A DNA stretch of 60,052 bases, counting the filler, from Sphacelaria rigidula (Eukaryota), in NCBI GenBank assembly GCA_964200075.2. It is 4 parts of 4 records of this genome, joined end to end, with 100 filler letters (N's around TTAATTAATTAA, not from the genome) between each part and the next. Parts side by side here need not be neighbours in the genome. Positions count along the whole stretch, not along the records: positions 15,043 to 29,979 come from CAXNAA020001981.1; 3 more parts are not named here. One strand, given 5' to 3'. Shown here one piece after another: positions 3,001 to 48,212 of this stretch. The position numbers and the translations under genes are program-made. Each line of letters opens with the position of its first letter. The stretch's first letter is position 1. The notes beneath the pieces are model-generated. The model was not told the origin of the DNA. It searched no databases and saw only the letters and a list, made by a program, of their open reading frames with translations.

Positions 3001-3334
3001 CCATCTACTCTGCACCCCCCTATTAACCTTTTGATCTACACGTATGTGACCGAATCAGCCGGGGTAACGCAGTAGGAAGGTCAACACACGGGAGTTTTTT
3101 TTGGGGGGGGGGTTTCGTACCCGAGCTCCCTTCTGCGGTGGTTGCCGTTCTTTTTCATCGGGAGAAGGGTTTAACGGTCCCTCTCATCGTCGCCTGTGAA
3201 GTCGAATTCTGTGTACCCACGACAAAGTCGCTCTCCTTTGTTGAGCATGATGTGAGGAAAAAAATCCCAGATCGTGTGATTTCACCGAGATTCGAACGCA
3301 CGACCCAACCGTCAGAAGCTTTCGAGTTTCCAAC
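3001..3334 (-). mobile_element. tRNA-derived SINE (family 1), copy 1
   Basis: The body (cagccgggg..gaagg.caacac, ttctgcggtg, tcgaatt.tgtgtacccacgac, gtgag.aaaaatccca) is repeated at 47258-47551. A pol III B-box-like GTTCGAATC lies on the minus strand at ~3289-3297. Confidence 0.7.
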
Positions 3335-12880: not shown

Positions 12881-15800
12881 ATGGCGGAGGTGTCTGTGAA
12901 CCTGGACAGGCTCATAAGCCAGTTCCCCAGATACGAGGTATGCTTGAACTGCTCTTCTTTTGCTCCCGTCCTCCATGGGTATTCGCAGTACCTCTTTGCA
13001 GCAGAATGCGGCTATATCGGGGCAAGACCGCAACAGTTCGCCGCTCATCAGTACAAAAACACCCACCACAATCCCACGCAAGAGTCATTATTACTTCGCT
13101 GTACTCGCTATACTTCGGCTGTAACTTTGCTTGAACCAGCAAGAGTGCAACACCGTTTGGCTCGACCCTTACGGCACGCTTGGACGTGGCGCATACAGCC
13201 ATTCTGGTGGCCTCGTGATTCGCTCTGCCAGTCTACAAATGAATATTGATTACTCGAGTGAGAACGCCGATGAATATCATGTTTTCGCGTATCGCGGACG
13301 TCGACCTGTATCGCTGTACGTGCCGACTGTTGTGAATTCACTGTACCAAAGTACCGACCTTGTCCTGCTCTACCATTATACTGTGTTACACTGTACTGTA
13401 CTGTACTGTACTGTACTGAGTTACAAACTGCGACCTATACACTGGCCGTTGCACCAAAGTAGATTTCTTGCCCTCCAACCTGTTGGAAAATGGCCGGCGA
13501 ATCAAAAGCCGGACGATTGCTGGTATGTTTCACAGGTGGCATTATTGAGTTTACTGGTTTCTATTATTGATTGTCGCACTTTAACCCTTAGACCGCGAGG
13601 TTAGTCTTCTGTTGAATCGGCATCAATTTCAAGTGAAACAAAGCATGCATGATCCAGCAAGACTAATCTCGCGGTCTAACGGTTAACTTAGCTACAGCAA
13701 TGCGCGCCGTGGTCGTGCGACTACAGTGAACGCCAAAGCTACATGTCATCTGTTAATAACACCTGTTGAGTTTTTGATTTTTCGCGTACAACGGACACAT
13801 TGAAATCCTGCCCGTGAACAGATCGCATTAGCAAGCGCAGGCAAGTCGGGTTGTGGCCATCACCTGACTTGCCCATGTACAAGGGGATGCCCAGACGAGG
13901 AAACGCCGGCTGCCGATTCGTCACTTTTCTTTCTCTACAGAACTATTCCCCAGAATATTCCAGGATCATTCGTCGGGCTGTAATGCAGCAAAGCCGTATC
14001 TTTTCGGGACGACAAAATCGCATTCCAACAGCACGTCCGCGACATTCCAGTCTTGTTCTGTTTCCATAATAGAGGTATCTCAAACTCGGCTCCCGGTATC
14101 CTGTTTTTTTGCTGGCTCTGAGTTGTTTACTATTTTCAAGTGAAAGTGATCGCGATTCACAGGAGGACATGACAGGAGGACATGACCTGGCGGTGAAAGG
14201 GTCTCATCCTCTGATGAATCGCCATCAGTTTCATTTGAACAGTCTTCCGCCACAAGAAAAAAAAGGGGAAACATCGGAACAGAATCCGACATCTTTTCGC
14301 CCCAATACGCACGCACACACCGCGTAACCCTATATTCAGCAAGATGGGGTTGTTGTCTGTAGTCTACATGACATGTGGTCGAAGTTTCAGCACGTAAAAG
14401 CACTAATAGCGCTTGCACGGCTGTCTCCTGAAGTGAGCACCTCTACAGGCGATACCAAGATAGGTACCGCGTAGAATGACATCATCCAGAGTGTGCGCAA
14501 TACGGATCGATGTGTTCGTTTGCCAAGGCAGGAGCTACCCAGCAGGAAATGAGCGTATCTACGTGTCAACATATGCATCCACTGACGTCTCACGCAGTCT
14601 GGGCCGAGGGAACTGCGTTTTGAGGGCGTATCGATGGCATTGCCCAAAATCCGTATTTTGCTTCGTGCAACGAGTGCACCACGTAAAACGTGCCGCCGCT
14701 CCGGGAATATGCTGTCTGTGTTGTGGTCTACCTCTGTGTCAAGTTTCAGGCTGGTTACAACAGACACGGCGGAGAAATCCACGAGCAAAATAACCCTTGA
14801 TTTGTACTGAAAATAAAGTACTAAACCCTGTTGAACCGTCGAAAGATACGTGAGGTCTGTATGATTTTTGTATGCGGGAATCGCAACTGACTTGCTTTTG
14901 GGGGGGGGGGGTGTACTCATGATCATGCTTGCCATAGTCATANNNNNNNNNNNNNNNNNNNNNNNNNNNNNNNNNNNNNNNNNNNNTTAATTAATTAANN
15001 NNNNNNNNNNNNNNNNNNNNNNNNNNNNNNNNNNNNNNNNNNCCGTTTCGAAAGGGGTGCGTGGTTAATGGTCAAATGACTAAGGCAAGCAACAAATGAG
15101 TACGCCCCCCCCCCCCCTTTATGAGCCTCTGCATACGTTATGCGAACGAGAAAAGGTTTGTAGGGGTACCCTTTGTCGCCAGCTAGCGGTGAGGATGTGC
15201 ACCTATTTTCACATACCTTCTGCGTGTGCGGAGTTACGAAGCCAATAATCTTCACAGAACACTTTTCTCCGAGAATGTGAAGTCCGCTTCGAAGCCACCC
15301 ATCAGTTAATTGTTCCCCCTCCATTTTTACGACACTTTGGTGCCCGCTTTATTTCTTGGGCGAGACTTTTCCGTTTTTCATCGCGTCGCTGGGAACCGGG
15401 ATTCGAACCCCGGGACTTTCAGTTTATCACGCGTACACGCGTCATCTGATGGTGTCGCCAATGTGAAAAGGTGATTCCTCGACGGACACTTGTGGGAATT
15501 TTTTCCTTCTACATGGTGGTTCCCACAGTGGACGTAATTTTCAGGAACATGTATTTATAGGGGAAAGAGGAAAACCCAAAACAAAACGGGAGGTTCGAGG
15601 TCCGATAATATTTCGCTGGTAAACGAAAAAACAAAATGAATAGTAAGTGGTTGTATCGTATATAATACTAGTTGCGGCGTTTTGCTCATTTTCCCGTCGC
15701 TACCCGTGGAAAAGAAAGCAGTGTGTTGTCATGCAAGCAGTTCGCTCGAGGATGTGATACTCTGCTGCGGCACAGTACAAGATACAGTAATGCGTAATGA

Positions 15801-18800
15801 ATGCCAACGACGATGTCACTATTAATCGTCCCACACGTCTACGTAAGACGGGACTGCAATATACACCGTCCACGTTTAGCCACGGGGCGATCTAATCGAC
15901 CCAGTCGCTCTCGCGTACTCTCGTGGCCTACTGTGATTACAACCATGAGGCTTGCGGTTTCTCCTCGTCGTGTCCCGATCTGACTGCGGTACCTTTGTTT
16001 GGTCTGCGCTTTCCTAACCACGCGGGGAAACAAGGAGCTAACTCTGCAAAGGTGTGCCTACAATGGTACCCAGCCCATCTCCGCCAACTCTTTAGCTTTG
16101 ATTGATTTTTTGCTTGCGCCTCACCTTTTCCCTCCTGTGAATGATCTACAAACATTTGCGTAACCGCTTTCGAAGGTGAGGTGTTGTTGCCTGACCGTTG
16201 TTCTTATATCTTGCGCGTTCTGATGTTGTTATTCCTTGCGTGGACTCGACCGTTCATCTATTGTGGATGGTGCTCCCACGTGCCATCGGACACGCTATCA
16301 TCTCAATACTGTACCAGGACGTGCATATACATGGCCGGAGCGGATATGGACCTGACGGGCGCTGCGGTGAGTGCATCGGTTCAACGTTCGCCGATTGAGA
16401 GGAAAGAAGTGTCGTGTCACTTAGGCGATCTTCTTGTGCTGGCCTTGCGTGAGCTTGTAATTGCAAGCACATACAGGCCAACGTGTTGTGAAGCGTGCTC
16501 TGTGATATGTATCCTGCCAGCTTTGTTTGCTGTTAGTGATATGTGAGATGCAACCTGGCTCAATGTTTATGGGACGCGTTTTCCACACACTTGCGGCAAG
16601 ACAGGTTCTGCTGCCTATTCTTCCACGTGTATGTATAATGGCACTCACTGATCATGACACTCTCTTCGTCACTTTAGCATACGTAGTCAGCTGTCTCTGT
16701 CCCGCACAAGGCCTGTCGATCGACGCCATATTCTCTGCGAGGCACTTCAGGATGAAAAGTGAAAAACGTCCCTGTGGTTCTCGTGTTGGTCTCCGCTGCC
16801 GTATGGGTATCTTGACCCATACGAGCAGCTTGTTTCGCACATTCCCACGTTTCTTGTGTCAGGTAATTGCAGATGTTTTACCCAACATTGCGTGTCGTTT
16901 TTTCGTGTGTTTCGTGTTTGACATGTGTTCCATCACCGAATTTAATGTTCGAATTGCGAAGACACTGACGGCTAGTGACCCGAGGGCGCATAAGTGGACG
17001 GTTCAGCTGCTCTCCGCCTTGCAGTACATGGCAGAGAAAAACATGGTACACAGGGACATCAAGCCGGCAAACGTCCTGCTCCGCCACGGTAAATGAGACC
17101 GACTTTTACCACCACATACATTGTGTGTGCTAGTTGTTTTGTTTCGTCGTGCAAAGTAAGCATAATTTTCTCTTCAAATCGTTGTTGCGGTGGACAACCG
17201 TACTCTTCTGTACTGTTGTATGTCGAGCTAGCCAGACATGATATTTTTCTTTCACGTTCCCGTTGATAGCCCCATGGCACATTGTTTCGCTTTGTCTTCA
17301 TCTTTTTCGCTACAGCACTGCTCCATTTTTCAACGCCAACTCGTTGACGTATTTTAGTGGCTTGAGCATGCAGCGCCCTTCGGTTAAGGCAACACGATGT
17401 GACATGAGACCAAAGGACGCCTTCGCACCTATCTGCAGTTTCGAGCCAATTTTCAGTCTGCTTCATGAACCATCAGTCGCCGGCAAAGGTTCCGTGAGTC
17501 CATTGTGATATACATACATTCGCCGTCATGTCCGATTCACTCGTCTTGGCTTCTCAGTAAGCAGTACCAAGACTTTTTCGTATGATGCATGGAGGTATGC
17601 GCATCGCGTCATCTCTCAGTGGCGGTAATTAATGGGTGCAATGCTTCACATAACCGCGAACTTGATATCATGGTAACGTAGTTGAAGCGTGCTAGAAGTT
17701 ACCGCTTTTACTATTGCATACTACGCATCTATTGCGGTATTCTAATGCGGTAAGCACACCCGCAAATATGTAAGTAAATGCAGTATGCACTTCTTCAATT
17801 GTTATTTATTTGTGCATCACTTTTTTGTTCTCTCCAACGTTTTTTGTGCTTGGTTTACAATCATGACGATGATACTGTATCGTCTCAGACAACATCAAGC
17901 TCGCTGACATGGGCTTTGCGACACCGCTCACCGATGACAACCCCGCGCTCACCACCTTCATAGGCACCCCGGTGAGGCTACCAAACACCAACGATAGAAC
18001 ATATTGCCCAAGGGAGGACACCCTCCGCGGCGCAGTTCACTATATTTTGATTCCGAGATGAAGACGACGACAACAACGTCATGAAACTCCTCTCCTCTTG
18101 CGTTTCTTCCCTTTTCCTTTCATCTTATGCTCGATATCGATATATATATAATGATTTTATTCTTTTGTCTATCGTGAAGGTTTATTTTTTTTCCTTGTTT
18201 CTTCTTCGAACTGTCAACGTTCGCAGTATGCTGGATAGCCAGCTTCCCCGCTGGTAGTGTGTTTTTTGCTGTACACAACAAGATGGGGCTTGTTCCACTG
18301 CAGCACTTACAATAACGACCATGTTTTGTTTTGTTTTCCCTCACACTTTGAACCCCTCCCCTTCCTCGGAATGAGTCCGTTGTCTCAAGGTATCAGCCCA
18401 TCTCTCCCCCGGTACGCGCCTTTCATTTTTGTCTCGCGGATTGAGTCAGCACTCCCGCACCGCGTCTACTCACGCCACACAAACCCAGTCGACTTTTTTG
18501 TTTACTCACGTTCTCACGCTATCCATGGTGAAAATCATACATTACGAGGAGAAAACCCAACGCATCGGGAATCAAACTCCCGTTCCCTCCACCCTTATGG
18601 CGACAGTCGAACCATTACACCACCGGGGCGTGCATGTAATGCTTATTATGTATCTCCACTGAATCACTGTGCCACAGCAGCTTCACGTTACACGTCCGCG
18701 TGCTGAGTAAAGTATGAAAGAGATATACGAATGACACACTGTAGGGTCTTGCAGAGTCTACGTACACACACACACACAAACACACACACTCGGTCGTTTC

Positions 18801-21446
18801 CATCGTCATGGTTGTTTTCGCGCCGTCGCCTCCGCGTTTGCCTTTCCTCGTCGGTAAACATGCTCTCCATGTGCATGTGCATACCAACTGCCACAAATTT
18901 CAGGGATACATGGCACCCGAGGTCTTGCTGCGCCGCAGACACTGCTACCCGGTGGACATGTGGGGTGTGGGCATGGTGATATTCCACATGCTACACGACA
19001 CGACACCCTTCTGGTGAATGTCTCACTCTGTATGTGTACAAAAATAGCCATGCTCCAAGCGTTTTATGAGATGACGCCGAAGAGGCAATATACATATATA
19101 AATATGGCACCGAGAGCGATATTGCCTCTTTTTTACCGAGCGCAGCCATAAATTCATACCCTTGAAGATTACACATTCTTGGCGTGGAAAAGAGAAATCG
19201 GGGATATACTGTAGTAGTCATTTTCATGGTCTGTGGTGAAGCGGTGTGTGACGTGTTTCCAAGCGAGTCTGTACTGAAAGTGGCCATTTTTGTTTAGAAA
19301 AGTGGTCACGTATGTTACCCGTGCAGAGCACACACGAAACGGCGGTACGGTGTGCATGTACAGATAAATCTAAGAAAAGCTTTGCGGCGGTCATCAGTAC
19401 CTTGTTCCGGCGTTGATAATGACATCCATGCTGCGGTTGCCAAGAAACAAGAAATACCTACGAGTAGTCAAGTGCAGAGTGTATTTTTTCATGTACGGAG
19501 TGTATTTTTTCATGGTGCACTTTTCTCAAAGTCAGCACGACTTCAAATCACGTCATTTCGGCCCATGGAATTGAATGAAACAGGCCTGGAAGTACGGCGT
19601 CGCCAGATGACTACAAGAACGAACGCTGGATCGAGCAGGAGACACAGAACGTTTTGACGGGTACCTTCGTCACCCCCATCGCGGCTCCCGTCGTCGCTTC
19701 GGGCTGTGGAGACCTTATCCGGAGGGTACGTTTGACACGATTCGCGTTAGTACTTTCAAGCAGATCTGCGGTTGAAATATAAAAGACGCCACACGCAAGA
19801 CAAGGAGAAATAGTAGGTATATCCACGCCGGAGTGCGCTATAATAGCTGCACATGCAGATCGTGCCGCCCCTCGCACTAGACCGACCCTAGCTACGAGGG
19901 TGTGCACTTGGGGTACAATTTTGGCTACGTGAGGGTGCGACACTTGTATTTCGGGATGGACGTTCAAGAACATTCTTCGTGGGGAGGGGGGATAATCGCG
20001 CCTTGGCATGTCTTCATCAAACTATCCAAGCGTGAAAAGGACGTGGACGCGTGTTATGGGGTGCGTGTATCATACCGACACCGTTTTGGCGGTGTACAAA
20101 CCAAAAGCGCTGTCAAAGTCAATGTCAATGTCAGTAATGGGTGTTTTTGGGATCCGCCCGAGGAGGCCTGTATCACTAAAGCATTAGGGCGTGAGAGGGT
20201 GTGATGGTGTTCGTGCCGTTTCACGCTGGCGCCTGTGCTTTTGTAGTAAAACAGTAGTTCGTGTTCCACAAAGTAACAGTAGGAGGTTGCGTTGTACGTG
20301 TTGTTGGTTGCAGGTTTGTTTGTGTTTCTCTCTTGCCATACTTCCATCCCCAACCCCTTCCCCCTCCCTTTCTCAGGACGCGTCGCGTCCGTAGTCTCAA
20401 GGGACGGATCAACCTCTTCCACGGCACCCAGTGCCTGCCTATTGTAGCCTTTTGGTACCGTCGCGGATTGGGTCAGCACCTCCGCACCGCGGCGCTTGAC
20501 GTCAAAGTTTGTGTGCTACTCACGCCCTTGCGTTTTGAATGACGAAGATCAGATGCTCCTGAAAACAAAACGTTTCAGATTTGTAGCTGCTGGGATCCGA
20601 ACCCTCCACTCCGGCCTCGACGCTTGTACCGTGTACCCGTTGGACCACCGCGGTGCGACGGCTCATCGCCACTTTTTTGTAAGGGGTATTCCGGTTCCCC
20701 TTGTTTGAAACAAGCGCCGCACCGCACGGGTGGTTTCGAACGGCTGGATAGTTTTGTTTCCGTGGCCGTTCAGTGTTTGCCGTTTGTCGTCCCTTATTTC
20801 GGTACAGTGTATAGATGAGCGATATACCTGTCTTGAGTTCGCTCGTTGAAGAAAGTGTTCGCGCGCTTGTATTTGCAGTTACAAATGGGAGCGAATACTC
20901 CGCATAATTACCTCAGCAGCTCTGTTTTGGGGTCAATTTATCTCGGGGTGACGTTGTGGATTGATTTTCATCTACAGTGTTCCTGCATCAAGGATCGTCA
21001 ACTATCTCGTAGTTATACGATCGAAAAAGGGTACTGTTTTGTTCCTTCACAACGTTGACCGTGGTCCCTGGAGAACGAAGTATGTAGTGGGGGGCATCCG
21101 ACGTGTGTACGCTTCGATTTGCCGCAATCGGCCAAATCCTCCCGCGTGTATGATCGGCGTTATTGAAATAGCGGGATAAGACAATACCCATGTCATATCT
21201 CATGTCAGTCTCCCTACAACGCTGGACTTTTTATTCGTTCTCGTCATCTGGCCGATGCAGCTTCTCCACACAGACCCAGCTAGGCGTCTGACAGTCTTCG
21301 ACGCCTTCAGGCATCCCTGGATCATCAGCGACGGGGTGGTGCTGCAAAACACTCGCAACAAGGTCAAGAGCGAACTGCGCAACCACGCCATCGCGACCGA
21401 TCGCGACATAGGGAGACGCCTGCAAATCCTGGCAAAGGACCTGTAG
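12881..21446 (+). CDS. Serine/threonine protein kinase (CAMK-like, divergent), multi-exon
   Basis: Solid exons: 16962(?)-17088 (QLLSALQYMAEKNMVHRDIKPANVLL), 17889-17971 (NIKLADMGFATPL..TTFIGTP), 18904-19013 (GYMAPEVLL..PVDMWGVGMVIFHMLHDTTPFW), 19584-19725 (..VLTGTF..SGCGDLIRR) and 21261-21446 (LLHTDPARRLTVFDAFRHPWI..stop), all phase-consistent. Probable 5' exons: 12881-12937 (MAEV..FPRYE), 13140-13315 (Gly-loop LGRGAYS) and 16318-16366 (CIYMAGADMDL). The exon(s) for subdomains II-IV were not found; an assembly gap lies in this interval. Confidence 0.85.
13381..13418. repeat. (CTGTA)n pentanucleotide microsatellite
   Basis: ctgtgttacactgtactgtactgtactgtactgtactg. Confidence 0.8.
13581..13686. 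mobile_element. piggyBac-like MITE (~98 bp) with TTAA target sites
   Basis: TTAA|CCCTTAGACCGCGAGGTTAGTCTT ... AAGACTAATCTCGCGGTCTAACGG|TTAA (22/24 TIR match). The internal motif TGAATCGGCATCA recurs at ~11998, 14135-14240, 43840-43890 and ~60030; the last lies downstream of TTAACCC at ~59986. Confidence 0.75.
14943..15042. other. Scaffold gap with artificial TTAATTAATTAA linker
   Basis: N44-TTAATTAATTAA-N44, the same construct as at 29980 and 45017. Confidence 0.95.
15385..15450 (-). mobile_element. tRNA-like SINE head (not a functional tRNA)
   Basis: Minus strand has a T-arm/B-box, CCCGGGGTTCGAATCCCGG, but no convincing D-arm or acceptor stem. Confidence 0.45.
18370..18630 (-). mobile_element. 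tRNA-derived SINE (family 2) in a kinase intron
   Basis: Minus-strand head GCCCCGGTGGTGTAATGG (A box) ... GAGTTTGATTCCC (B box). The body shares TCGCGGATTG.GTCAGCAC..CCGCACCGCG and GTCCGT.GTCTCAAGG with 20378-20660. Confidence 0.65.
20378..20660 (-). mobile_element. tRNA-derived SINE (family 2) in a kinase intron
   Basis: Minus-strand head GCGGTGGTCCAACGG (A box) ... GGGTTCGGATCCC (B box); core shared with 18370-18630. Confidence 0.65.
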
Positions 21447-23873
21447 GACTGCTCGTGGGCTGGAGCTCAGACTGATGGCGAAGATGTGAGCTCAATTGGA
21501 GGAGATATGTAGCTTACAGGCATGCTCGTGACTTCTGTGTTGCGATGGGCGTAAACGACTGGGCGACTTTTCAAAATCGAAATCTGCTAACGATGCTGAA
21601 CATCAGGAGGTGGGGGGTGAGCTCATCATCCGTACCTCTGCATTATTGGTGCTTTAGGTTGGTAATTCCTTCGTTCTGTGTGCAGTGCACGCCAGTGCGT
21701 CAAAGAGGGAACGCGAGAGGTTGTTGGATGAGTTTGGTGCAGAGTGAGGGGTTTACTGGTGGGTGTCGACAAAGACCTTCCAAGACGCCTTTGTTGCCGA
21801 TCGTATATTAGCTGATTGTGTTGTGTTTATACGAAGTGTGGCAAGGGGCTGAGCAGACCTCGAGTAAGCTGCACTCTCTTGCATTCGGGATACTCGTGTG
21901 CTGTGCTATGCATATGCGCGGAATCCTCGTTTCTAAGTTCGCGTCACTTGCGGACTTACGCCACCACAAGATGGGGCAAGTGGGTAGCTGTTGGTATGAG
22001 CTGTTGGTAGGCTAGCCCACATTTTGAAGCATGGCTGACCCGACCATGTGAGTCCCGGAAGGTTGTTCAGTGTCTTGTGTGGCGAGAAGAGGGTACTGGT
22101 GCAGGTAGGGGTCAGGACTCGGAGTACTCCAATCGATTACAATGGAGGGCACGGGATGCATGTCACCAATGCCTCCACGACGGCAAACAGGATTGAAATA
22201 TACGTGTGTTTTAGATGTATTGTTAAGCGTGGTGATATGATCGTCACTCCTTCGCTCTGGGGAGATTACGATGTATTGGAAGATGCCTCGCCAGACGCAG
22301 GCCGGCGTGAGACAGCATGCGATGAGGACTGTAGGATAGCGATCCGATGTTGTGGAACGTTTCGTTGGTAAAACTACACCCCGTATTTATTGATAGGCGT
22401 GGAAGTGAATATTTTGGGCACCGCTTGCTGGGCATGTTTCGTTCTGTAGACGTTGCTCTGAATGAACTGTCGGCATTTCATCTTTGGCGGGAGGGAGGAC
22501 GTAAATGATGGGGGGGGGTTAATATTTGTGGGTTTTCGTGTGACATCGAGCACAAATTAGGACAACAAGGAGCCAGCCAAACACGCTCGGTTCAGGGGAT
22601 GCATCAAGGGTGCGGTGAAGCGATGATAGCTTTGAACACTCGCTGGAAAACGTACCTCCTCTCGCCTACTTCCCGTGGAACAACACTTCACTTGGCGTAA
22701 ACAATGCCTCCTTTGGGCTCCTCGAGGTCATCTCTCGTTGATGGGCGGCTTGTATACTTTTCGGTGGTCCGCGATTTGTTTTGTCCCTTATTCTCACATG
22801 CTGTTCTGTTCTGGGGTTTGGTGTATGTGACCACTTGGCGTGAATTATGTTGCGTATGGTTTGGGTGTTTCATGGGTGAGCTTTGGGTGTAAGATGGATG
22901 GATCTCCAATGGGGGGAGGCAACGGATTTGCACAACACGATGTCAAATACGAATATATAGAAGTGGGTACGATACGAAGAAGATATATGTACAGTGCGAG
23001 AGTATTCGGTGGGTAACTAGTGTGTACACTTCCTGAGTGATTACTTGTTGTAGGCGTGACGAGAAGATACGAAATGAATGAAGTGCCAAATGGGAAATGA
23101 GTGCCTTGTGGCGATAGGCGATTCTACTGGTGGCGGTGCCTTACACATCTTGTTGCCTGAATGATGATTTTATTTCATGTAGCCGAAACTCTACTGATTG
23201 AAAAATCCGTTCTGCTGTCAAATGAACCAAGCTTTTCGTCAGATTGAGTGTCCTGCATTTGATCGAGAGTAAGAACCCACAGAATATAAAACCCTTTTCA
23301 CACTTATCGCCCAGCGTGTTTCAGGGGAATACTTCGCCGAGCTAGTTGAGGAGCGGTTTGAATGAAAGCTCTCTGCCGTGAGATGAACCCGATGTGTGTT
23401 TTTATTGTATTGGCGTCGTCAATCAGCAGAAACGTTCGACTCCAGATTTGCAGATACGGTCCAAAAATACCTGGAACATTTTGACTTTAGAAAAATGCCA
23501 GCAGGCCTTGTACGGGGCCTTCATCCCTTTCTGTAGGAGCTGGCCGGTGAAGCCTCTCAAATCCCTGCGTGGGACATCGACGCGTAATTGTGAGCACACG
23601 ACATTGTTACAGGCAGAACTCACGCTCACTCAAATGCCAGACACTCGAATCGGGCAAAGATGTTGTTCTGGACGTTTTTTGGCGTCATCGGTGGAGGTTC
23701 GGTGGCAATGAATACGCCAGTAACGCACATGATGAAGCGATGTTCAAGATCGAGGCAAGGTGTAGAAGGTTTTTTTCCCGCTGCGCCGCTGGTGTCGCTG
23801 CCACTCCAGGTATTGTACACGCAAAAGATGGAGACCAGATTGAAAATATTAATCCTTGCATACATCGCAGGAG

Positions 23874-24114
23874 TGATCCCGCGATAGCCCCCCCCTAGAT
23901 CAGCCCCGAAAATGTCACGAAGAAATCGGCATACAGTGCATGATGGTCGGTTTCAGCCTACGTGAAGCGCCTCATATGGGCGACATCGGCGGAAACGATT
24001 CCAAGTGTTGGAGTTCCCAGTTGCTCAGTGTGCTCGGCTTTCTCATTCTGATTTACATGCAGATTTCGCCTCCACAAACCAGCCACTTTACTGCGGGAAG
24101 CTATCGTGGCATCA
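23874..24114 (+). mobile_element. MITE family A, copy 1 (~240 bp; TIR GATGCCGCGATAGC(C)n)
   Basis: TIRs TGATCCCGCGATAGCCCC ... GCTATCGTGGCATCA; the body is homologous to the copies at 24711, 47973, 51070 and 56722. Confidence 0.8.
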
Positions 24115-24710
24115 GTCGCCGACAAATCGTCCGGTTGCGGACACCAGGGGGGGTAAGTTATGTCTTCAGCCGTACGTAGATAAGAGTACTATTAAGTACA
24201 GTAAATATCAAGAGTCCGAACAGTGTTCAATTTGCTCTCCAGAATACATGTGGATTCGGGGGATTTCCTGCGGAAGGGGTGGGGGATTTTGTGCAACGTG
24301 GCAGTGTCAGACAATCTCCCCCGATCATATTGGTTGGCGACATCAAGCAAAAGACCAACGCGTGGTGCTGGGTTTGCATGACGCCCCGATTACTTGCAAT
24401 GTGATACAACCGCCGAGAAAAAATTCGCATGCTGCCCCCCACATGACAACATACATGCACGCACCTTCCACAAAAACACCGTTCTTCCAGTCAGCACGAT
24501 TTTGTCATTCGTCTCAACAACAATGCAATAAGTCATCACCAACGTGTGCTCATTGATCCCACTCAGCAGTCACAGGTTGTGGAGCAAAGACGGTAGCATT
24601 GTCGGAAACGTACATTGAACTTTCATGCGGCGGGTGAGGTCGGGTGGGTGTAGCTCGGTACCACGGTTGGCTTATTCGCTTCGTGAAAAATGGCCGAAAA
24701 CGCGACGGAG

Positions 24711-24994
24711 TGATGCCACGATAGCCTCCCCCCCCCCATGGTCAATGATCAAACGGCAAAAAAAAACAAAAAATGGGTACGCCCCCCCCCCCCCCCCTCC
24801 CCAAGAAAAATGGTTACTTTGAGATTCAAAATCCATGTCTAAATCAAAACTATGAAAATGCCGAGCACACCGAGCAGCTGGGAACTCCCACTCTTGGGAT
24901 CGTTTTTGCCAGTGTCGCCCATATGAGGCGCTGTTTGCAGTCTGAAACCATTCACCATGCGCTGTATGGTCACGTTTTTCGTGACAGTTTTGAC
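24711..24994 (-). mobile_element. MITE family A, copy 2 (one TIR missing)
   Basis: TGATGCCACGATAGCC(C)n followed by the reverse-complement body (CCGAGCAGCTGGGAACTCCCA..GCAGTCTGAAACC). Confidence 0.75.
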
Positions 24995-26293
24995 CTCTGT
25001 TGCACCTTTCACGCAGCAAGTAATTTTCCCGAGAATGTCAATCTATCCGTTGACAGTCGCGCGAGTTGAACACGGGTGGCTCAGCAAGCTGTGTATATCA
25101 AAAACGCCAGATAGATACGGTATCAAAAACGCAGTTCTATACCCAATTTAAAAAGAGCTAGGGTATCAAGTGGCGGACGTCACGTCACTACACCAGGATC
25201 GATTCCTTCGTTTTCGCCCATGCTAGCAACCGCTCGCCTTGCTAGGCCTTGGTGTACCGGGTACACGAGGATCAGGACCACCGCGGCACCACGTTGTTGT
25301 AGACTGTGATTGTACTTTCATGCGGTACTTGTGCCATCGCTTCGTGTGACGGACACGCGAGGAGTGTGCGTCTGCGCTTATGACATGAATACGCAAGATA
25401 TGCACTGGACAGATGATGTGCCGCCACCGAGGAATAACTAAGGTCCACGTGTGGCGATTTCGTGTGGGCCGGTTTACCCCTTCGATTGGTCGTATCGGCG
25501 ACAATAAAGAGCCAGGTCAGGGAGCGCGGGAATGTGTCGGCGAGTACTAGACATATCGCGTATCAAAAATCAGGCCCCACCTCCGAAAACTTAGCTCCAC
25601 GTGGTGATAGCGGCAGATGCTTGCACAAAGATCGCTCTGAACACAAACTTGCACACAGTTGCCCCCCTTTTGGGTCCCAATGGTCTTATGACTATGGCAT
25701 GCATGATCATGAGTACACCCTTTTGGGTCCCAGGGAGATTTATTCAGTGCTACCTAATGAAAGTTGTTCGCATTGATCTTCCCGACCCGTACACAGTTGT
25801 GGTAGATTGGAAGAAAGACGCCACTAGTCAGGCTATTACCGATTATGCTGGCATAATATCGAGCATAACTCCACCTTCGGTATCATAAAAGAATAGCATT
25901 TCGGCGAGGAGCATGAAGAGCATAGGATTTCAGCGAGTAACACAGAAGGCATCACCTCCACCTTAAAACGGCGAAAGGACGGCCACTTTCTCGGCCTGGT
26001 TCACTTTTCATCCTTTCATGCGAGCAAGCATGACACATTACTGCCGTGTATATGCCACGATGCAGTGTAATGCATCACCATTGAATGGCCATAGCGTCTT
26101 CCATCTCGTCGCGATAGATAAAGCTGCAAAAAGAGGCTGTCAACTCGTGCAACGCGTGCACCAACAAGAGTTTGTTTCTCAGGAGGAGGGGGAGTTTTTC
26201 CGGCACGCCAGGGGGACGTTTACTCATGATCTTGCATGCCGTAGTCATATGACCGTTGACCTCGCACCCCTACAAAGCCGGGACCGAGCACGC

Positions 26294-26502
26294 CGGGTTT
26301 TCGTTGGACCAGGCTGACAATCAATCACCAAGCACGAAGCGCCATGATGTGTTCGGTGAGTCTCATGAGGGGTGACCTGCATCCTCCTAAGGTCGTTGTC
26401 GGGTTTTCGTTGGACCAGGCTGACAATCAATCACCAAGCACGAAGCGCCATGATGTGTTCGGCGAGTCGCATGAGGGGTGACCTGCATCCTCCTAAGGTT
26501 GT
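26294..26502. repeat. Tandem duplication, ~106-bp unit x2
   Basis: CGGGTTTTCGTTGGACCAGGCTGACAATCAATCACCAAGCACG...CCTCCTAAGGT occurs twice, nearly identical. Confidence 0.9.
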
Positions 26503-27136
26503 TCGTCGAAGTGTACTAATCATCTTGCATTTGGGTGATAGCCTCGAAGGAGTTGCTTCATTTTCTGGTATCGCCACTTCCAAAGACAGCCACAGGTTAC
26601 ACGCCTCATGGGTGTCTCACCATTTCAACACTGCGTAGCACGATCATCCCCTTTGCGCGGAGTTGAGGTTCCCCATCCGCACAATATGATCTCACTCGAT
26701 CATCATGGTTATCGAAGAAAAACGGTAAGCTGGTTGCCTAGCTCAGGCATTGCGTGGGGTGCCTCACAGCGCAGTTGCCAATCGACGTCAATCCAATTGC
26801 AGGGGGGGGGGGGGGGGGGGGAGGGGGGGGGCGAGGAACAAAAGAAGGGGGGGAGACACCCTCCTCTGAAAAAGAAAAAAAANNNNNNNNNNGGAGGAGG
26901 AGGAGCGTGAGAGCACGTAGGTGGATGGGGGGAGGGGGGGGGGGGGGGGGGGGGGGTGGCAAGGGCGTGACTGGAATGCAGACATAGCATGGGATTACCT
27001 CTCTATGCGCCAAAAAATGCACTTTATTCAATTTTCGGTGCAATACAGCAGGCGTGAAAAATTACGCGTCCGGGTTTGTTATGGAAGTAGTATGAGAAAG
27101 ATGGAATATTTGGCGTGGGAAAGGCATGGTGAACAT

Positions 27137-28951
27137 TGTGCAGATTATGTATTGGACATAGATCTCATACGTAGATTCTCGGGCATATAGTCAACCAGTG
27201 CCGTTCAGTCTAGCCAGAACGGCTCCGCGGCTCTATATTGTCAAGACCGCAAGAATGCCCCACGAGTACCTCGGGGGCGAGACCCCATGTGAGAGACTGA
27301 CAGGAAAGCCTTTCAACTACAACCGGCTTCGTACTTGGGGATCGGAGTGTTTCGTGCATCAGCACAAGCAGCAACGCGGCGCCGCTGCTAAGTTCCACCC
27401 ATATGCGAAGCGGGGCATCTTGGTGGGGCACGATCGGCACTCTCTCTGCTGGTATGTATGGCTGATACAGGAATCAAAGCTCGTAAAGTCTTCACACATC
27501 GCGTTTGAATCAGAGGCCAAGATCCTAGACATCGTGGGGGAGCTGAAGGCGGTCGAACTCAGTGATGACGAGGACGAGCCATCGGCAGAAGTGGAAGCAG
27601 CGCCAATCGACGGCGATGACGGCCCGGGTGGACAGCCACCACAGGACTCGACATCATCGAAGCGCTCTTCTCCGGATAATGGACTGCGCAGGTCCAGTTG
27701 ACTAGCGCAACGGCATCGAGGGGACAACGCACAGCAACGTTTTGAGAGTTCTGACGGCAGCAGTTCCGACGATGGAAATTTCCTCGCCACCCTTCTACAA
27801 GATCAGGACAAAGGCGCATTCTGCATGCTCGGGGGCCGAATCGTCATTGAACCACAGGAACCGTCGACAGCGAAAGAAACCCTGGCGGAACCTTATGCTG
27901 GCCGATGGAAAGTGCTCATGGAAGAGGAAACCCAACGGAAGGGCAACGAGCCTCAGAGCCGAGAGGCCGGTGAACCGCTGGGACCACGGGGGCCACCGGC
28001 GGCGCCTTTAACTCATACGACTCCAAGCGCAGACGAGCGCTCCAACGGTCCAAAGACCAAGGCATCACACACAAGAAACGAGCAGCAGGTCGGACTGGAG
28101 GATCAAGCCTCCTCGAACGGAGATGATCGTGAACGAGGCCGAATTACCGAACCAACGGAGACGCTGGGCAATCACGAAGAAGCCAAGCTCGAAAATATAT
28201 TCGTGCCGAGCGCGGACGGTTCTGGCCTTGACGAAGAAGCGAAGGAACAGCCCGCAGTGTAGGAAACGACAAAGGCAGGCGATGGACCACCCGAGGGTGC
28301 GGGATGCATGCCGAGCAAGGACAACCTCGCACACAGCCAACATACGTTCAAGTTGCCGCTCTCGACGAAGGATGTCAGAAGGGAAAAGGCGCCGAAATTC
28401 GGGACGAGTCTGGAGAGTCCAGGTCCACCACGTGGCTTCTATGGCATTCAATTGAAGGATTCGTTTGCCTCGTATATAGCACGTTGGTTGTGATCGTATC
28501 AGCTCTCTGCTGTCACCGCTATACGATCATGGGGGAGTGTGCAGATTATGTATTGGACATAGATCTCATACGTAGATTCTCGGGCATATAGTCAACCAGC
28601 CTGGGTAGGAGCCAGTGCCGTTCAGTACAAACTACCGACAGGAACGGTCCGGGAACCAGTACTGTAGCCAGTGTTCAGTCTAGCCAGAACGGCTCCGCGG
28701 CTCTATATTGTAAGCTCTACAGTTGGGGTTTAGGGCTGAGATTCAGAGAGCGAAGGTTCAGATAGAGCTGTACACCAGCGGGTGACGTCGGAATGAATAA
28801 TGAAAAGCACGGCGATGCAGCGCCCCACTCGGGTACGTCGTCTGCTCGACCCATCGAGATCTCTCGTGACAGTTGCCTTGCTCCGCTATAAAACCGTGCA
28901 CTGCGAGGAAGCGCGCCACGGCGACACCAGACAACAATTCACAAGTGCACA
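27137..28951 (+). mobile_element. Internally deleted Ty1/copia LTR retrotransposon
   Basis: 5-bp TSD AACAT at 27132-27136 and 28952-28956; termini TGTGCA...TGCACA. The 3' LTR (28538-28951) is preceded by a PPT (GGGGGAG); a 5' LTR remnant lies at 27137-27241. Protein remnants: copia integrase C-terminal/SH3 fragment (GETPCERLTGKP..LRTWGSECFVH..KFHPYAKRGILVGHD..SSHIAFESE), RT start EPSTAKETLAEPYAGRWKVLMEEE, and an RNase H end remnant (KLENIFVPSAD..LTK). Confidence 0.92.
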
Positions 28952-29979
28952 AACATGACTGAGATTAATGGTGCCTCGACGCCTGGGATGTGATGGCCTG
29001 TTTTTGTTCGAGAAAATTCGTGTCCATCTGTTGTATCTCCCAAAAAGATGAGAGAGAAGCGAGCTGTTGCAGGAATCGGGGTATTGGGTCAACATATCCG
29101 CTTCCTCCGTCGTTGTGAACCGTGATGTAGTCCTGCTTCCTCCTCACTGCGGAGAAAGTTCGGGTGGTTATCAATCTTGCAGCAATGCCGCAAATCGGGA
29201 ACTGTGAAGTGTGCCGACGATCCTCCTCTCCGTGTGCACAACGCCTGCCAGACACTAAAAAGCTCCAGTTTTTGTTCAATATGTTGTCAAGGGGCGAAGG
29301 TCATCGGAGCCGCTTTATTTGGTCGCGGTCGGGGCAGCAGTGGGTAGGAGGTTTGTTTCGATCCTCACAGCGCTTGCCCTGTTTTTTTTTCAGTCTCTGG
29401 AGGCCTTCCCGAGTTTTTCTTATACTTTTCCCAAAACGTGTGTTTCCGACCACGAGCAGACGAAATGAATAAAACCAATTAATGAGAAGCAGGGAGGAGA
29501 ATGGTGAAGAAGAACATGCATGGCCAATGTATGCCGTACCGCGCAGTCGTTAGCGAGTTGCGGGATAACTCCACTTGGTCAATCAGATGCCTTGTTCGTA
29601 TATGTTTGCCTCTTTATCTCGTCTTTGTGTGTTCCCTTCCTAACGTCAACCATTTAGTTGTGTCATGCAGTATTTTGGTATTTGTTTGCAATTGTCAGCT
29701 CGATCCCGACTTTTCTCAGGGTATCGGGGATCAGTGATGACAATATTCGACTTCTGGGTGACGACTGTCAACAAGAAAACGTTCACAAGGGGGGTTAGAG
29801 TTATCGTTGCACTTGTTCGTGATCGGGTATATGTGAAATACATCACACACCACCCATAACCTCTGAGAGAGCTGCCTTTTGTACCCGTTGTTCCGCCCTC
29901 GAGAGCCTGGGTAGATTACTTACATGGACTATGGGGGGGGGGGGGGGGCGTGCTCTTTTGTTGGTTTGCTTATTGTTTT

Positions 29980-30079
29980 NNNNNNNNNNNNNNNNNNNNN
30001 NNNNNNNNNNNNNNNNNNNNNNNTTAATTAATTAANNNNNNNNNNNNNNNNNNNNNNNNNNNNNNNNNNNNNNNNNNNN
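29980..30079. other. Scaffold gap with artificial TTAATTAATTAA linker
   Basis: N44-TTAATTAATTAA-N44. Confidence 0.95.
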
Positions 30080-30435
30080 TAGTCGTTTGACCATTGACCA
30101 CGCATCCCTTTCGAGACGGAGCAGAGGGGGGGGGGGAGGGGGGGTGCGTAACAGGGTCTGGGATTTTGTTTTTTGGGCACCCTTGACATCTTCTTTCATA
30201 ATCGGCGCTTTCCATTTTCGCTCAGTATCCTGAGGAGTAAACTGGATCAAAGTTCCACGAGTCAGACAGCACGTGAGCTAGCTCATCTGTGGGCTATAGC
30301 ACACGTATGATCTGTAATGCGTGGGAGGACCACGAGCTTTTGAAACCGCATCGTCGTTGGAGCACCTCAATGGTTAGGGTTTACACACGCGGCCATTCGG
30401 CTACCCCCATACACATCCTCTATCGCGATTTCCAT

Positions 30436-32375: not shown

Positions 32376-34374
32376 CTGTTAACATTCCACCACAACGATT
32401 AGTGGATCAAGATGGATGAGGGTAGAGTGGTGAAATGATTGCACAGCAGGAAAGTCTCATCATCGGTACAGGTATCGGTATCGGTATGAGAGGCAACTTC
32501 ACATTTTCACATCAAATCACATGCGTCCGTGTGTCTCGCGTTTGTTTTCTTGTTTGGGGGGATCTTCATGGTTTCGACTTACATAATATCGAAAGAACGA
32601 CCAAGTCTTCAGCAGGATGACACTCCACAACCCAATGGCAGTATGCAATGATAAACACACTAACATCACGAACACCCTACAAAGAACTTGACAGGAGAGT
32701 GCTACGTGGCACCCCTTACTCTCACTGTACTGTGCTATACTGTACAAGGCGAGACAGAAACTTTCCATCCTGGTGGCAATCGAAATCGCCTTAGGTCATC
32801 GACCAGAGCCGCCGCCTAAAAAAAACGTGCAAATTTCACCGACAGGAGAACTTGTCAGGCCCCTAGATTACTCCTTTCGAGTGTCATGACAACAAGACCA
32901 ACCGTCGCACTCGGGATGCACTGGTGTGATGATACTTGTACAAATATACTAGAGGATTATACAGGATGAGGGGGTAGGGTACTCCTGTCAGACATCTGTG
33001 CCATATTTCGACACTCTCATGTCTGTGTCGGGCTGCAGCGAAACATTTTGATGTAGCTGCTTGCCAACTAGGCTTTCGCACAGCAGCGACACACGGGTTA
33101 GCCTAACCGCACCAGTGACACATGTAGGCGGACATTGTCAGGAAAGAAAACCCCGCCTCTTGCCCGCGTGAACACAGCGCAACGCTACTGGTGGGGATGG
33201 TGAGAGCGCCTCACGACACACGGTGTGAGCAAGAATACAGACAGGTACACGCAGAGCAGTGCTTCGCCAGTCACCTCTTGTTTTTTCTTGTACTTTTGAT
33301 TGTCTTGGTATACTCATGATGACGAATGTCACAGATATGGGGTCTGCAAGCTTGCATTTGACCTCATATTGTCTGAGCAAACTACAGCACGCGTTCACCG
33401 AAGGGTGGACAGTAATCTCATCATCATCTCCTTCGCGCAAATTGGGTGGTGTAGGGGCGCGAAGTTTGTTGCCGCTTGTGTATCCTCCGCCTTCCCCGCC
33501 GACCAGCTTCACGGTGTTTCACGGTATTGAATAGCGAGGTGCTGCCGCCCTCGCACGTGGGGTGAGTCTGGGGGCTAAAAGGTACCTCGAACAATCGTCG
33601 GCCCATGAATTATACTGAACGTGAAGATACGAGTCCCCAACCCAATTTCCCCCATGCTTGAGGTCGTACTAACACGGGAATGGGAGAAGTAGTTTCGACA
33701 GCGGTTACGGTTACAACGGAACAAAATTAAACTTCTAGTTTTATATCTAACAACGTGGTAATCCGGGGATGCGGACTTTTTGCGTCGTTCATGTAATTAC
33801 CTTTTGTTGATTTTCTGCCATTTATAATCGTTTTCACCATTCCCGTCATTGTTGCGTCTTCACAGTCACCATTATCACTATTGCTACTTTGAATCACACT
33901 TGTGAGAACCCAACGTACCTTTTAGGTCTGTCCAATAACTTCTCACTAGTTATATCCATGGGAACGTTCTAGCGCTGAGGAAGCTTCCTCGCACGTCCGC
34001 TAGATCTTTGGAGGATGGTCTATTTGTTTCGAAATATTGGGACAATATCAGACCGAATGTGCGCAAGAGTCATAAAACGTTAAATACAGCATCATCATTA
34101 GGCCGCCTTTCATCATCTCAGGAAGACTCAAAAGATGGGCGGTACTTCTTTCTGACAACTTTTCACCGTTCTCCATGAAAACAAAGCACGTTTTGTGCCG
34201 AAAGTACTTCATGGCCATCATTCATCCTCCACTCCACCTTCAACTGGCTGGCCAATGACAAGTGATTACAGGAAGGATGCAACTACCCACAGGCTACATA
34301 CAGGCTGGTTGAGGGTGAATGACTAAATTTACTCCCCAGTGATTGCTCACGCCGTTTTTTGTAGTGAGGCCGTT

Positions 34375-34825
34375 TCTTACGGTTCGTAGTTTTTGCGGCT
34401 CGTATTCTTCTCTGTTGGGACAATTGGCACGGTTTTGGCCGCGAAACAGAGAATTTTGTCATCGCATGCCTCCAACACTTTGCATTGACCCCAGCGGCAG
34501 GGGTCTGGCCCACTTTTCCGATTCGCACGGCTCCGAGGTTTCGATAACGGCCTCTGGACGAAAATGTAGCTGGAAAATGATATGCGATATCTGCGGGTAT
34601 CTTCACGTAAATTTTATTCTCCAGCTGTATTTTCGCCCAGAGGATGATATCGAAACCTCGGAGCCGTGCGAATCGGAAAAGTGGGTCAGACCTCCTCCGA
34701 TGGGGTGACGTGAAGGGTACAAGGCGCGTGATGGTGATTTTTCTCTGTTTAGCAGCCAAGAACCGTGTCAAATGTCTCAAAAGTGTTAAATACGAGCCCA
34801 CAAACATACAAGCGGTACGAATCCG
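34375..34825. repeat. Long foldback palindrome (MITE-like), core 34502-34692
   Basis: GGTCTGGCCCACTTTTCCGATTCGCACGGCTCCGAGGTTTCGATA / TATCGAAACCTCGGAGCCGTGCGAATCGGAAAAGTGGGTCAGACC is a near-perfect inverted pair; outer arms are imperfect. Confidence 0.85.
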
Positions 34826-35633
34826 CCCCAGACCCGGAAATTTTTCATACAAGTGCTCTGAGATATTAAGAAAAGACTCCCTCATGGGACCCCCGATATG
34901 TGGGGAGGAAAGAAAAAACTCGAAATAATACATTCATGCACCCCTTTGAAGTATCTCCATGCACCCGTATGCAAAGGGGAAAATACGGCGTGTGAGCAGT
35001 TTTCTGTTTGGGCGTTGAAGTATACCGGTGTAAGCGGAACGCCCGCACCTTTCATACTTGATCATAGTATGCTAGGGAAGGTTTCCTCATTTGCTTGGAG
35101 CTTTCACTCAACCCTAGGGGATCAGCTTCTCGAGTTACACGAACAAACAACACAACTTTGTACAAACATTCCTCGGGCCACCTCGGGACGATTCAGATTC
35201 GAATATTTCATTTTCAAGCAATCGGTATCAACCTCTGGGGGTCTTTTCGCTGGGACTCCGGAATCTGGTAGAGGGGGGATACACTTTGAAGTATCCGTCC
35301 GTGCTTTGTCTCATTCATAGCACCCATATCTACCAGACTGCCAAGTTGGAGTATTATCGAAGCTCTTCTATGAAAGTTACAAGGAACAATGTCAAGAGAC
35401 TTTCTGGGTCTGTCGTGCATACTGCTAGTATCATCAGTAGAAATCCGACGACGCCAAAACCTCACATGACATACAGACCATATTTTGAGGTATAACTCGG
35501 TATCCTGAGAGCCGTCTTGAAATCTGATTCTTGAGTTCGATTCCCTAGCTGATGGCGGTTACTGAGATTCAACTCGTGATGAGATTGGGTACACATTGAG
35601 TCGGATATTTCAAGGCTTTGCACGTTACACTCG

Positions 35634-35818
35634 TTACGTTCGTTTCACGTCAAAAGTCGTCAAAAGTTCAGACAGGCTGGTACTCCGGTGGGAGACGTGG
35701 ACCACGTGTAGAGCCCTGTTTGAAAGTCAAGTCAAATCAAGGCTCCCCACGTGGTCCCCCACAGTAGTACTAGGCTGCTTCAACTTTTGACGACTTTCAA
35801 AGTGAAACGTGAACGTAA
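35634..35818. repeat. Foldback palindrome ~185 bp
   Basis: TTACGTTCGTTTCAC..AAAGTCGTCAAAAGTT / AACTTTTGACGACTTT..GTGAAACGTGAACGTAA; inner GGACCACGTG/CACGTGGTCC. Confidence 0.8.
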
Positions 35819-37506: not shown

Positions 37507-37910
37507 CTCCTAAAAAGCATTTTTACAGATTGAAAAAAACAGACAAGAATGGAAATCTGTAAAAATGCTTTTTAGGAGCTTTGACGTAGTTTGACGTCCC
37601 AAAAGAGAGCTAGGCGGAGTTTGACACCTTGAAATGACTCGAGTCACTTGTTGAGGCAGTTCCAGGATATCTTCCCGTCCTGCGGTGGCCACAGTTTTTA
37701 TTTTGGCCGAACAAGAACTTTTTTTCCAATAACGGTAAAAAACAGACGAATGTGGAAAAAATCGCCCTTCTTCGGTGGACTTGACCGTTCTTCGGCGAAA
37801 ATATTTGCTTGGCCAAAACAAAAATGGCGGCCACCGGGAAACGAGAAGATGTCCTGGGACTGCCTCGACTAGTAAAGCAAGTCATTCTAAAATGTCAAGC
37901 TCCGCCTAGC
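37507..37910. repeat. Perfect 25-bp hairpin (37507-37578) followed by a MITE-like inverted-repeat element (37609-37910)
   Basis: CTCCTAAAAAGCATTTTTACAGATT-22 nt-AATCTGTAAAAATGCTTTTTAGGAG; GCTAGGCGGAGTTTGACA ... TGTCAAGCTCCGCCTAGC. Confidence 0.8.
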
Positions 37911-44003: not shown

Positions 44004-44177
44004 CATGGTATCATACCGATCGTCATGGCCACCTTATGACCGTCACATTACTGAATTTTTGTTTAAGGCCACACCAGTGGCGACAAGGGTCATGGTATCA
44101 TACCGATCGTCATGGCCACCTGACGACGGTCACATAACTAAATTTTTGTTGAAGGCCACACCAGTGGCGATAAGGGC
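44004..44177. repeat. Tandem duplication, 87-bp unit x2
   Basis: CATGGTATCATACCGATCGTCATGGCCACCT...AAGGCCACACCAGTGGCGA.AAGGG at 44004 and 44091. Confidence 0.9.
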
Positions 44178-45016: not shown

Positions 45017-45116
45017 NNNNNNNNNNNNNNNNNNNNNNNNNNNNNNNNNNNNNNNNNNNNTTAATTAATTAANNNNNNNNNNNNNNNNNNNNNNNNNNNN
45101 NNNNNNNNNNNNNNNN
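45017..45116. other. Scaffold gap with artificial TTAATTAATTAA linker
   Basis: N44-TTAATTAATTAA-N44, followed by low-quality poly-G. Confidence 0.95.
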
Positions 45117-47972: not shown

Positions 47973-48212
47973 GATGCCGCGATAGCCCTCCCCCAAACCA
48001 GTCCCAAAACCGTCACGAAGAATATGGCCGTACAGCGCATGAAAGCTCGTTTCAGACTTCATGAACCATATAAATGACATCGGCGAAAACGATCTCAAGA
48101 ATGGGAGTTCCCAGCTGCTCGGTGCACTATACTCGGCTTTTGTTATTTTGGTCTACATGTACATTTTGCCGCCTCAAATCAGTCATTTTTCTGCGGGGGC
48201 CTATCGCGGCAT
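47973..48212 (+). mobile_element. MITE family A, copy 3
   Basis: GATGCCGCGATAGCCC ... GGGGGCCTATCGCGGCAT with the conserved body. Confidence 0.8.

Follow-up and report, generated by a model that had tools for sequence, protein, structure and literature searches.

A short repeat inserted at C/G runs in the brown alga Sphacelaria rigidula, best read as a non-autonomous retroposon

In the genome of a brown alga, 38 bp of sequence lie between two perfect copies of a 15-bp direct repeat, and a close relative of the same length lies between a different 15-bp pair on another contig. How did so small a unit come to be inserted, and is it a mobile element in its own right? The preliminary description of this DNA had proposed an ultra-small mobile module of fixed length. 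Our analysis, which covers ~59.7 kb of one brown-alga genome and eight or nine copies of the element, four of them cut by contig ends, points to a real, repeatedly inserted micro-repeat with a preference for C/G tracts, which is best read as a non-autonomous retroposon whose mechanism we offer as a proposal. No description of the element was found in the literature searched.

The window, by which we mean the whole stretch of 60,052 bases that was analysed, is no single locus. It joins four contigs of 14,942, 14,937, 14,937 and 14,936 bp through 100-bp linkers (44 N, TTAATTAATTAA, 44 N) at 14943-15042, 29980-30079 and 45017-45116, spaced at exactly 15,037 bp. The four are similar-sized pieces of a fragmented brown-alga assembly, and since all of them have the repeats described below in common, they belong to one genome. 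ORF density is low across the 60 kb. A Pfam scan of 147 ORFs of at least 95 aa (30 + 117) matched a peroxidase, a protein kinase, a thioredoxin, a copia-type SH3 domain and, weakly, ArgoL1. ARAGORN found no tRNA genes in the window, and Rfam gave no match anywhere in it at the gathering threshold. The matched ORFs are as follows.

9086-10771 (+): class I (cytochrome c/ascorbate-type) peroxidase, exon-sized match to a host gene
16506-17096 (+): protein kinase, exon-sized match to a host gene
50391-50792 (+): thioredoxin, exon-sized match to a host gene
19881-20201 (+): weak match to Argonaute linker-1, exon-sized
27162-27698 (+): ORF with a retroviral/copia-type polymerase SH3-like domain (PF25597, E 4e-15), an LTR retrotransposon fragment adjoining a cluster of long G runs

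From the exon-sized Pfam pieces and the copia-type integrase fragment it follows that the window is eukaryotic nuclear DNA with introns. The best named match of the peroxidase exon, at 96% identity, is an unnamed Sphacelaria rigidula protein product, the next named ones coming from other brown algae. A prokaryotic origin or contamination was rejected, the 25-mer of the core having no exact match in 185,579 prokaryotic genomes.

Other repeat structures are present as well. Six imperfect palindromes or foldbacks of 100-470 bp (34365-34830, 52776-53051, 37609-37910, 35634-35818, 49314-49524 and 13581-13686) share 69-74% identity with their own reverse complement; three of the six have sub-threshold Rfam matches, mostly to plant or animal miRNA-precursor families (MIR8562: 68.6 bits versus a gathering score of 211). 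At 44004-44176, a unit of 86-87 bp is duplicated in tandem with 92% identity.

Two insertions preserve both of their borders in readable sequence.

25665-25679 (+): left 15-bp target-site duplication, CCCTTTTGGGTCCCA (CCC + 12 nt), with 3 further C before it
25680-25717 (+): 38-bp core, subfamily A (nhmmer E 7.8e-10)
25718-25732 (+): right 15-bp duplication, CCCTTTTGGGTCCCA, identical to the left one
56743-56757 (+): left 15-bp duplication, CCCAGAAAAGTCGCT, host MITE-like sequence just inside the C run of its terminal inverted repeat (TIR)
56758-56795 (+): 38-bp core, subfamily A, 35/38 identical to 25680-25717 (E 3.5e-07)
56796-56810 (+): right 15-bp duplication, CCCAGAGAAGTCGCT, 14/15 versus the left one; host MITE sequence resumes here

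The first core was found between perfect 15-bp copies, as originally described. The second was likewise found to be of equal length, 35/38 identical and flanked by a different 15-bp pair, CCCAGAAAAGTCGCT and CCCAGAGAAGTCGCT, which agree at 14 of 15 positions. Because the bases immediately outside both repeat pairs differ, each direct repeat is exactly 15 bp long. The proposed long target-site duplication was thus recovered in both of the measurable cases, with the same geometry, 3 C plus 12 nt being duplicated each time. The other copies sit in C runs or at contig ends, where the length of a duplication cannot be read, and the figure of 15 bp therefore refers to two cases only.

The core 25-mer has four matches in the window at no more than 3 mismatches, versus 0.00 expected from 100 shuffles, and simple arithmetic predicts ~0.006 exact 15-mers repeated within 100 bp per 60 kb. 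When G-run families and four tandem duplications of adjoining units are set aside, the 15-bp pair at 25.7 kb is the only direct repeat within 400 bp that the repeat search of the window returned.

Both duplicated targets end in GTCNCN followed by GG, that is GTCCCA^GGG at 25674-25682 and GTCGCT^GGT at 56752-56760. This GTCNCN^GG motif at the downstream cut amounts to 6 of 15 shared positions, which is not beyond chance, and is a hint only. The long copies carry GGTCA just upstream of the 38-bp boundary. The GTC in the MITE copy at 56.7 kb is a private change from the family's GTG. The shared motif may be a cut-site or microhomology signal, or chance.

The second insertion can be compared with its unoccupied counterparts. 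Self-comparison of the window placed the core at 56.7 kb within a MITE-like repeat family of ~240-310 bp with ~75% identity between copies, whose TIRs of 22-25 bp read ATGCCGCGATAGC, followed by a run of 8-13 C.

56722-57035 (+): host MITE-like repeat carrying the insertion (TIR ATGCCGCGATAGC + C run)
51065-51320 (-): paralogous MITE-like copy, empty, with CCCAGAAAAGTGGCT once and no core
47973-48212 (-): paralogous MITE-like copy, empty site
23871-24117 (-): paralogous MITE-like copy, empty site
24713-24992: partial MITE-like copy with its TIR at 24713 and an element copy in its C run

Empty sites, which the preliminary description had suggested looking for, do exist as paralogues within the window: three of the five left ends of the MITE-like family have a single target and no core. 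These three read TIR, C run, AGAAAAGTGGCT, GGTTTGAGG; the left end at 56.7 kb reads TIR, C9, AGAAAAGTCGCT, core, CCC AGAGAAGTCGCT, GGTTTGAGG. Both copies of the 15-mer at 56.7 kb have GTCGCT where the family has GTGGCT. Since this private G-to-C change is present in both, the duplication arose at this locus, after that MITE copy had diverged. The paralogous empty sites with their single target establish that insertion and target duplication are real. At the fifth left end (24713), a degenerate element copy lies inside the C run itself, with C10 to its left and C16 to its right, and all four right-hand TIR ends are empty. In all, two of the nine TIR C runs were struck, by independent events in two MITE copies, with the element oriented alike in both. 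Only the MITE-like copy at 51 kb shows a repeat of 5 bp (GAGTC) at its flanks.

Copies of the element were gathered with blastn-short and with an nhmmer profile built from the copies. At E < 1e-5 the profile search of the window recovered eight copies, with no other noteworthy match; a ninth is doubtful. The further copies already listed, at 14912-14942 (-), 15068-15104 (+), 24738-24781 (+), 26219-26256 (-) and 50019-50056 (-), all proved real, and two were added: 30080-30125 (-), a 5' part at a contig start, and the doubtful 29949-29979 (-), which the profile search did not recover. They group into subfamilies A (25680, 56758, 14912), B (26219, 50019) and C (15068, 24745, 30080). Together with their surroundings, the copies other than the two 38-bp cores are these.

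14900-14942 (-): subfamily-A copy truncated to 31 bp at the contig end, then C12
15043-15117 (+): subfamily-C copy, at least 62 bp, beginning at the contig start, then C13
24738-24797 (+): degenerate subfamily-C copy (~44-45 bp) + C16, in the TIR C run of a MITE-like copy, lacking a unique-sequence duplication
26210-26297 (-): long subfamily-B copy (~79 bp), its 3' end followed by CGT + C5
50012-50101 (-): long subfamily-B copy (~83 bp), flanked by C-rich runs immediately upstream (50105-50120) and by C6 on the downstream side
30080-30144 (-): subfamily-C 5' part, 46 bp, cut by the contig start, with C7-T-C11 directly before it
29933-29979 (-): doubtful and degenerate 3' portion, truncated to 31 bp at the contig end, then C16 (blastn E 1.4e-4, homopolymer included)

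Mean column identity across the copies is ~81%, with 35/38 within subfamily A. All eight copies in which the 3' end is present have it in common, ATGAGTAC(A/G), i.e. ...GAGTAC(A/G)-like. A fixed length of 38 bp, as originally claimed, does not hold: only two of the eight solid copies have it, and others with the common 3' end reach ~45, at least 62 (from a contig start), ~69 (the full length that the copy at 30080 would have), ~79 and ~83 bp, thus extending 5' by 7 to ~45 nt. Both full 38-bp copies of subfamily A start at the same base; the 5' ends of the other copies differ, even within subfamily C, a pattern that discrete lengths per subfamily may also produce, and the mutual similarity of the two B copies stops at 50101 and 26297. 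The 38-bp unit is a short form of a family of ~70-85 bp that sits in or at C runs. The flanks of all copies differ within the window, and the one or two shared fixed flanks that would mark an internal segment of larger repeats were not seen there. At eight or nine copies in 59.7 kb, a density of roughly one per 7 kb, the genome as a whole probably contains the family in very high numbers.

Directly upstream of the copy at 26.2 kb, a 107-bp unit is duplicated in tandem (26294-26508, 96% identical). Further upstream, at ~26513-26535 (-), comes another, incomplete 3' core half (ATGCAAGATGATTAGTACA), with no C run after it; its score was reached in 0 of 500 shuffles and is thus significant. The 107-bp unit resembles the element only marginally (26 of 500 shuffles do as well), and we claim no longer parent element in the region 26.2-26.8 kb.

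The association with C/G runs was borne out in detail. At least 3 C lie directly 3' of seven of the eight copies with the 3' end present (run lengths 3, 3, 6, 12, 13, 16 and 16), and the eighth reads CGT, then C5. On the 5' side, a C run is found 0-12 nt upstream in five of the six assessable copies. Orientation is constant, the C run always being 3' of the core. The site preference is real, two independent insertions having struck the C run of the same TIR in two MITE copies. The core had been described as having no tail; its common 3' end precedes a homopolymer C run, in the position of the poly-A or microsatellite tail of a retroposon. Given this C-run tail and the variable length, the 38-bp unit does not look like a new class of ultra-small transposon but like the shorter version of a small repeat family of retroposon type.

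G/C homopolymers are in marked excess in the window, with 37 runs of at least 7 and 19 of at least 10, versus ~5.5 and ~0.09 expected by arithmetic; A/T runs of at least 10 number 5. Examples are 26802-26831, 26934-26956, 45117-45180 and 59280-59306, and many are broken by a single T (C run, T, C run). Only some of them adjoin the element or MITE TIRs. Gaps of 10 N, at 26883-26892 and 59219-59228, both lie within G/C-rich runs. The G run at 3103-3112 was considered as a degenerate copy and rejected as a T/G homopolymer difference within another repeat family. Five of the six internal contig ends fall in the element or in G runs.

On structure, the preliminary description was right that terminal inverted repeats are lacking, and the long copies have no inverted terminus matching the 3' end; the core is not free of inverted symmetry, its halves matching at 11 of 18 positions as an inverted repeat. 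A hairpin is predicted for the core of subfamily A (-12.2 kcal/mol, z -2.1), and neither its pairs nor the inverted symmetry is kept in subfamilies B and C. The hairpin was rejected as evidence for a structured RNA: across 7 copies it shows no covariation (0 compensatory pairs), and the share of paired cells, 70.6%, does not exceed that of shuffles.

There is no coding capacity in or beside the element, which makes the suggested mobilisation in trans plausible. An autonomous partner was sought among the ORFs of the window and not found: Pfam detected no reverse transcriptase, LINE endonuclease or transposase among the 147 ORFs, and the sole mobile-element match is the copia-type integrase fragment. 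ARAGORN and Rfam gave no tRNA-like or other small-RNA head at the copies, and no promoter was found. Rfam had no match at any copy, either at the gathering threshold or at E<=5; matches at E<=5 lie elsewhere only and are mostly miRNA-precursor-like. A search of predicted proteins (87-2000 aa; 27-88 aa) for translated copies, with the two open translations across 25665-25732 as queries, gave no candidate sharing three 5-residue words, which is weak evidence.

To account for these features, we propose that the element is a short non-autonomous retroposon that uses target-primed reverse transcription to insert at (C)n/(G)n tracts, with the 38-bp form being minimal or 5'-truncated; we tentatively put the probability of this reading at about 0.45. 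The family would be a non-coding, retroposon-like one of the host alga with a full length of ~70-85 bp, the 38-bp module being its shortest form, and its copying into such tracts would depend on a reverse transcriptase/endonuclease whose gene lies elsewhere. A nick in the bottom strand inside a G run, ~3 nt from the end of the run, would leave 3' G's exposed; paired with the terminal 3' C's of the RNA of the element, these would prime cDNA synthesis. A cut in the top strand 15 nt downstream would then yield the 15-bp duplication (CCC + 12 nt), and either incomplete copying or a short master copy would give the 38-bp form. In this scheme the insertion, the duplication, the preference for C runs, the common 3' end and the differing 5' ends are observed, and we infer an RNA intermediate, priming by G residues and the enzyme itself.

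Several of the observed features suggest this route. The common 3' end, the homopolymer in tail position, the differing 5' ends, the ~15-bp duplication starting with the homopolymer base and the constant orientation together fit target-primed reverse transcription, and a constant orientation with the C run 3' is a prediction of priming on a G run. The geometry would parallel that of L1 at TT/AAAA sites, with C replacing A. A duplication of 15 bp is within the range of endonuclease-dependent non-LTR retroposition, and known eukaryotic DNA-transposon superfamilies make target duplications of 2-11 bp. The three diverged subfamilies, with no coding capacity, point to a long-lived, repeatedly copied family. 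Counting against the retroposon reading are the missing enzyme, the missing promoter-bearing head, the small number of copies (8-9) and the lack of a precedent for the tail, as we know of no retroposon with a homopolymer C tail.

A further objection comes from the two 38-bp copies themselves, which have identical 5' ends and an identical 15-bp layout (3 C + 12). Neither is predicted by random 5' truncation and the variable duplications of the L1 type; both fit a discrete unit moved with a fixed stagger. They speak for a discrete 38-bp DNA element, an extreme MITE or foldback moved by some transposase or integrase whose cuts, made where C runs end, would be staggered by a constant 15 bp. The quasi-palindromic core (halves 11/18) with its predicted hairpin would agree with this, as would the presence in the same genome of an active-looking MITE-like family whose TIR also has a C run. 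However, cut-and-paste of a fixed unit would not give copies that have the 3' end alone in common and are 7 to ~45 nt longer on the 5' side. What inverted symmetry there is, is weak and disappears in subfamilies B and C, no transposase is encoded in the window, and no eukaryotic DNA-transposon superfamily is known to us to make 15-bp duplications. We regard such an element as unlikely.

Doubtful to a similar degree is an origin as a by-product of repair at fragile G/C tracts, by which breaks in C runs would be copied from a C-run-flanked donor (through synthesis-dependent strand annealing or gene conversion) or filled by templated insertion of the polymerase-theta type, spreading a cassette between C runs. 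The excess of G/C runs reported above is in keeping with this, and the element does lie between C runs at 24738, 30080 and 50012. Moreover, no unique sequence is duplicated around the copy at 24738, which lies within a C run; this is the outcome expected of conversion guided by C-run homology. Conversion by way of flanking homology, however, makes no duplication of 12 nt of unique target, and such a duplication is seen twice. Templated filler is idiosyncratic, whereas the same 38 bp with the same ends were found at two unrelated sites on different contigs, and the constant orientation relative to the C run needs extra assumptions.

An artefact of assembly or library preparation, for instance adaptor-like sequence, or a loop in the de Bruijn graph that produced the duplication, might be suspected from the five of six internal ends of short contigs that fall in the element or G runs and from the error-prone G/C homopolymers with their 10-N gaps, but is highly improbable, as the copies differ among themselves (35/38 within a subfamily, ~81% mean column identity overall), one duplication pair is mismatched, the copies are found far from contig ends and bordered by unique sequence, empty paralogues are present and the 25-mer has no exact match in the prokaryotic genomes searched.

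Read as a retroposon, the element invites comparison with SINEs and other non-autonomous non-LTR retroposons, of which the eel pair UnaSINE1/UnaL2 and short internally deleted R2 derivatives are examples mobilised through a LINE-type 3' end. Like these it is non-coding, has a common 3' end with a simple-sequence tail, varies at its 5' end, is flanked by a duplication of ~15 bp and occurs in many dispersed copies that form subfamilies. The target duplications of such retroposons vary over about 5-20 bp; here both measurable cases have 15 bp. In contrast to SINEs, its tail is homopolymer C where theirs is A or a microsatellite, the searches revealed neither a polymerase III head nor a part derived from a small RNA such as tRNA, 5S, 7SL or snRNA, and its full length is only ~70-85 bp, the shortest form being 38 bp, with no partner LINE seen in the window.

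Target-specific LINEs of the R1 and Tx1 groups offer another parallel: R1 makes a 14-bp duplication, and simple repeats are the targets of Kibi, (TC)n; Koshi, (TTC)n; Dong, (TAA)n; and Waldo, (ACAY)n. The element resembles them in inserting in or at one kind of simple repeat, with the repeat on both sides, and in its fixed duplication (15 bp in two of two cases) and constant orientation to the repeat. It differs in that its target would be a mononucleotide tract, (C)n/(G)n, which to our knowledge has not been known as a LINE target, and in that only a putative non-autonomous passenger was seen.

MITEs are likewise tiny, non-coding, abundant and flanked by duplications, and the MITE-like family of the window is itself among the targets of the element. 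Unlike them, the element has no TIRs (its internal symmetry being 11/18 only), varies in length at one end only and makes a 15-bp duplication, longer than that of any superfamily known to us. With the introner elements of algae and other protists it shares short length, abundance, a target duplication and an algal genome; the one dated insertion, however, lies in a MITE-like repeat and not in a gene, and the 53 bp that it added lack consistent splice signals.

According to a preprint on brown-alga genomes, the assemblies of some species are short-read SPAdes assemblies (k up to 127, N50 3-31 kb) (10.1101/2024.02.19.579948). With five of six internal contig ends lying in element copies or G runs, the element likely limits assembly contiguity in this genome, and together with the C runs it is probably a main cause of the fragmentation of the short-read assembly. 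It would also escape masking by repeat libraries from other brown algae.

A bolder version of the retroposon reading would have a retroelement system with homopolymer (C)n/(G)n tracts as its specific target, in which an RNA ending in C's pairs with a nicked G run, the minimal unit of 38 nt is the smallest retroposon known and its activity seeds and lengthens the G/C tracts that break short-read assembly; taken as a whole, we consider this improbable. If the retroposon reading itself is true, it could explain the richness of this genome in long G/C runs (19 of at least 10 in 60 kb versus ~0.09 expected), and ~38 nt would be a lower bound for recognition and copying by such machinery. The mononucleotide C/G tract would then join the simple-repeat targets of site-specific retroelements.
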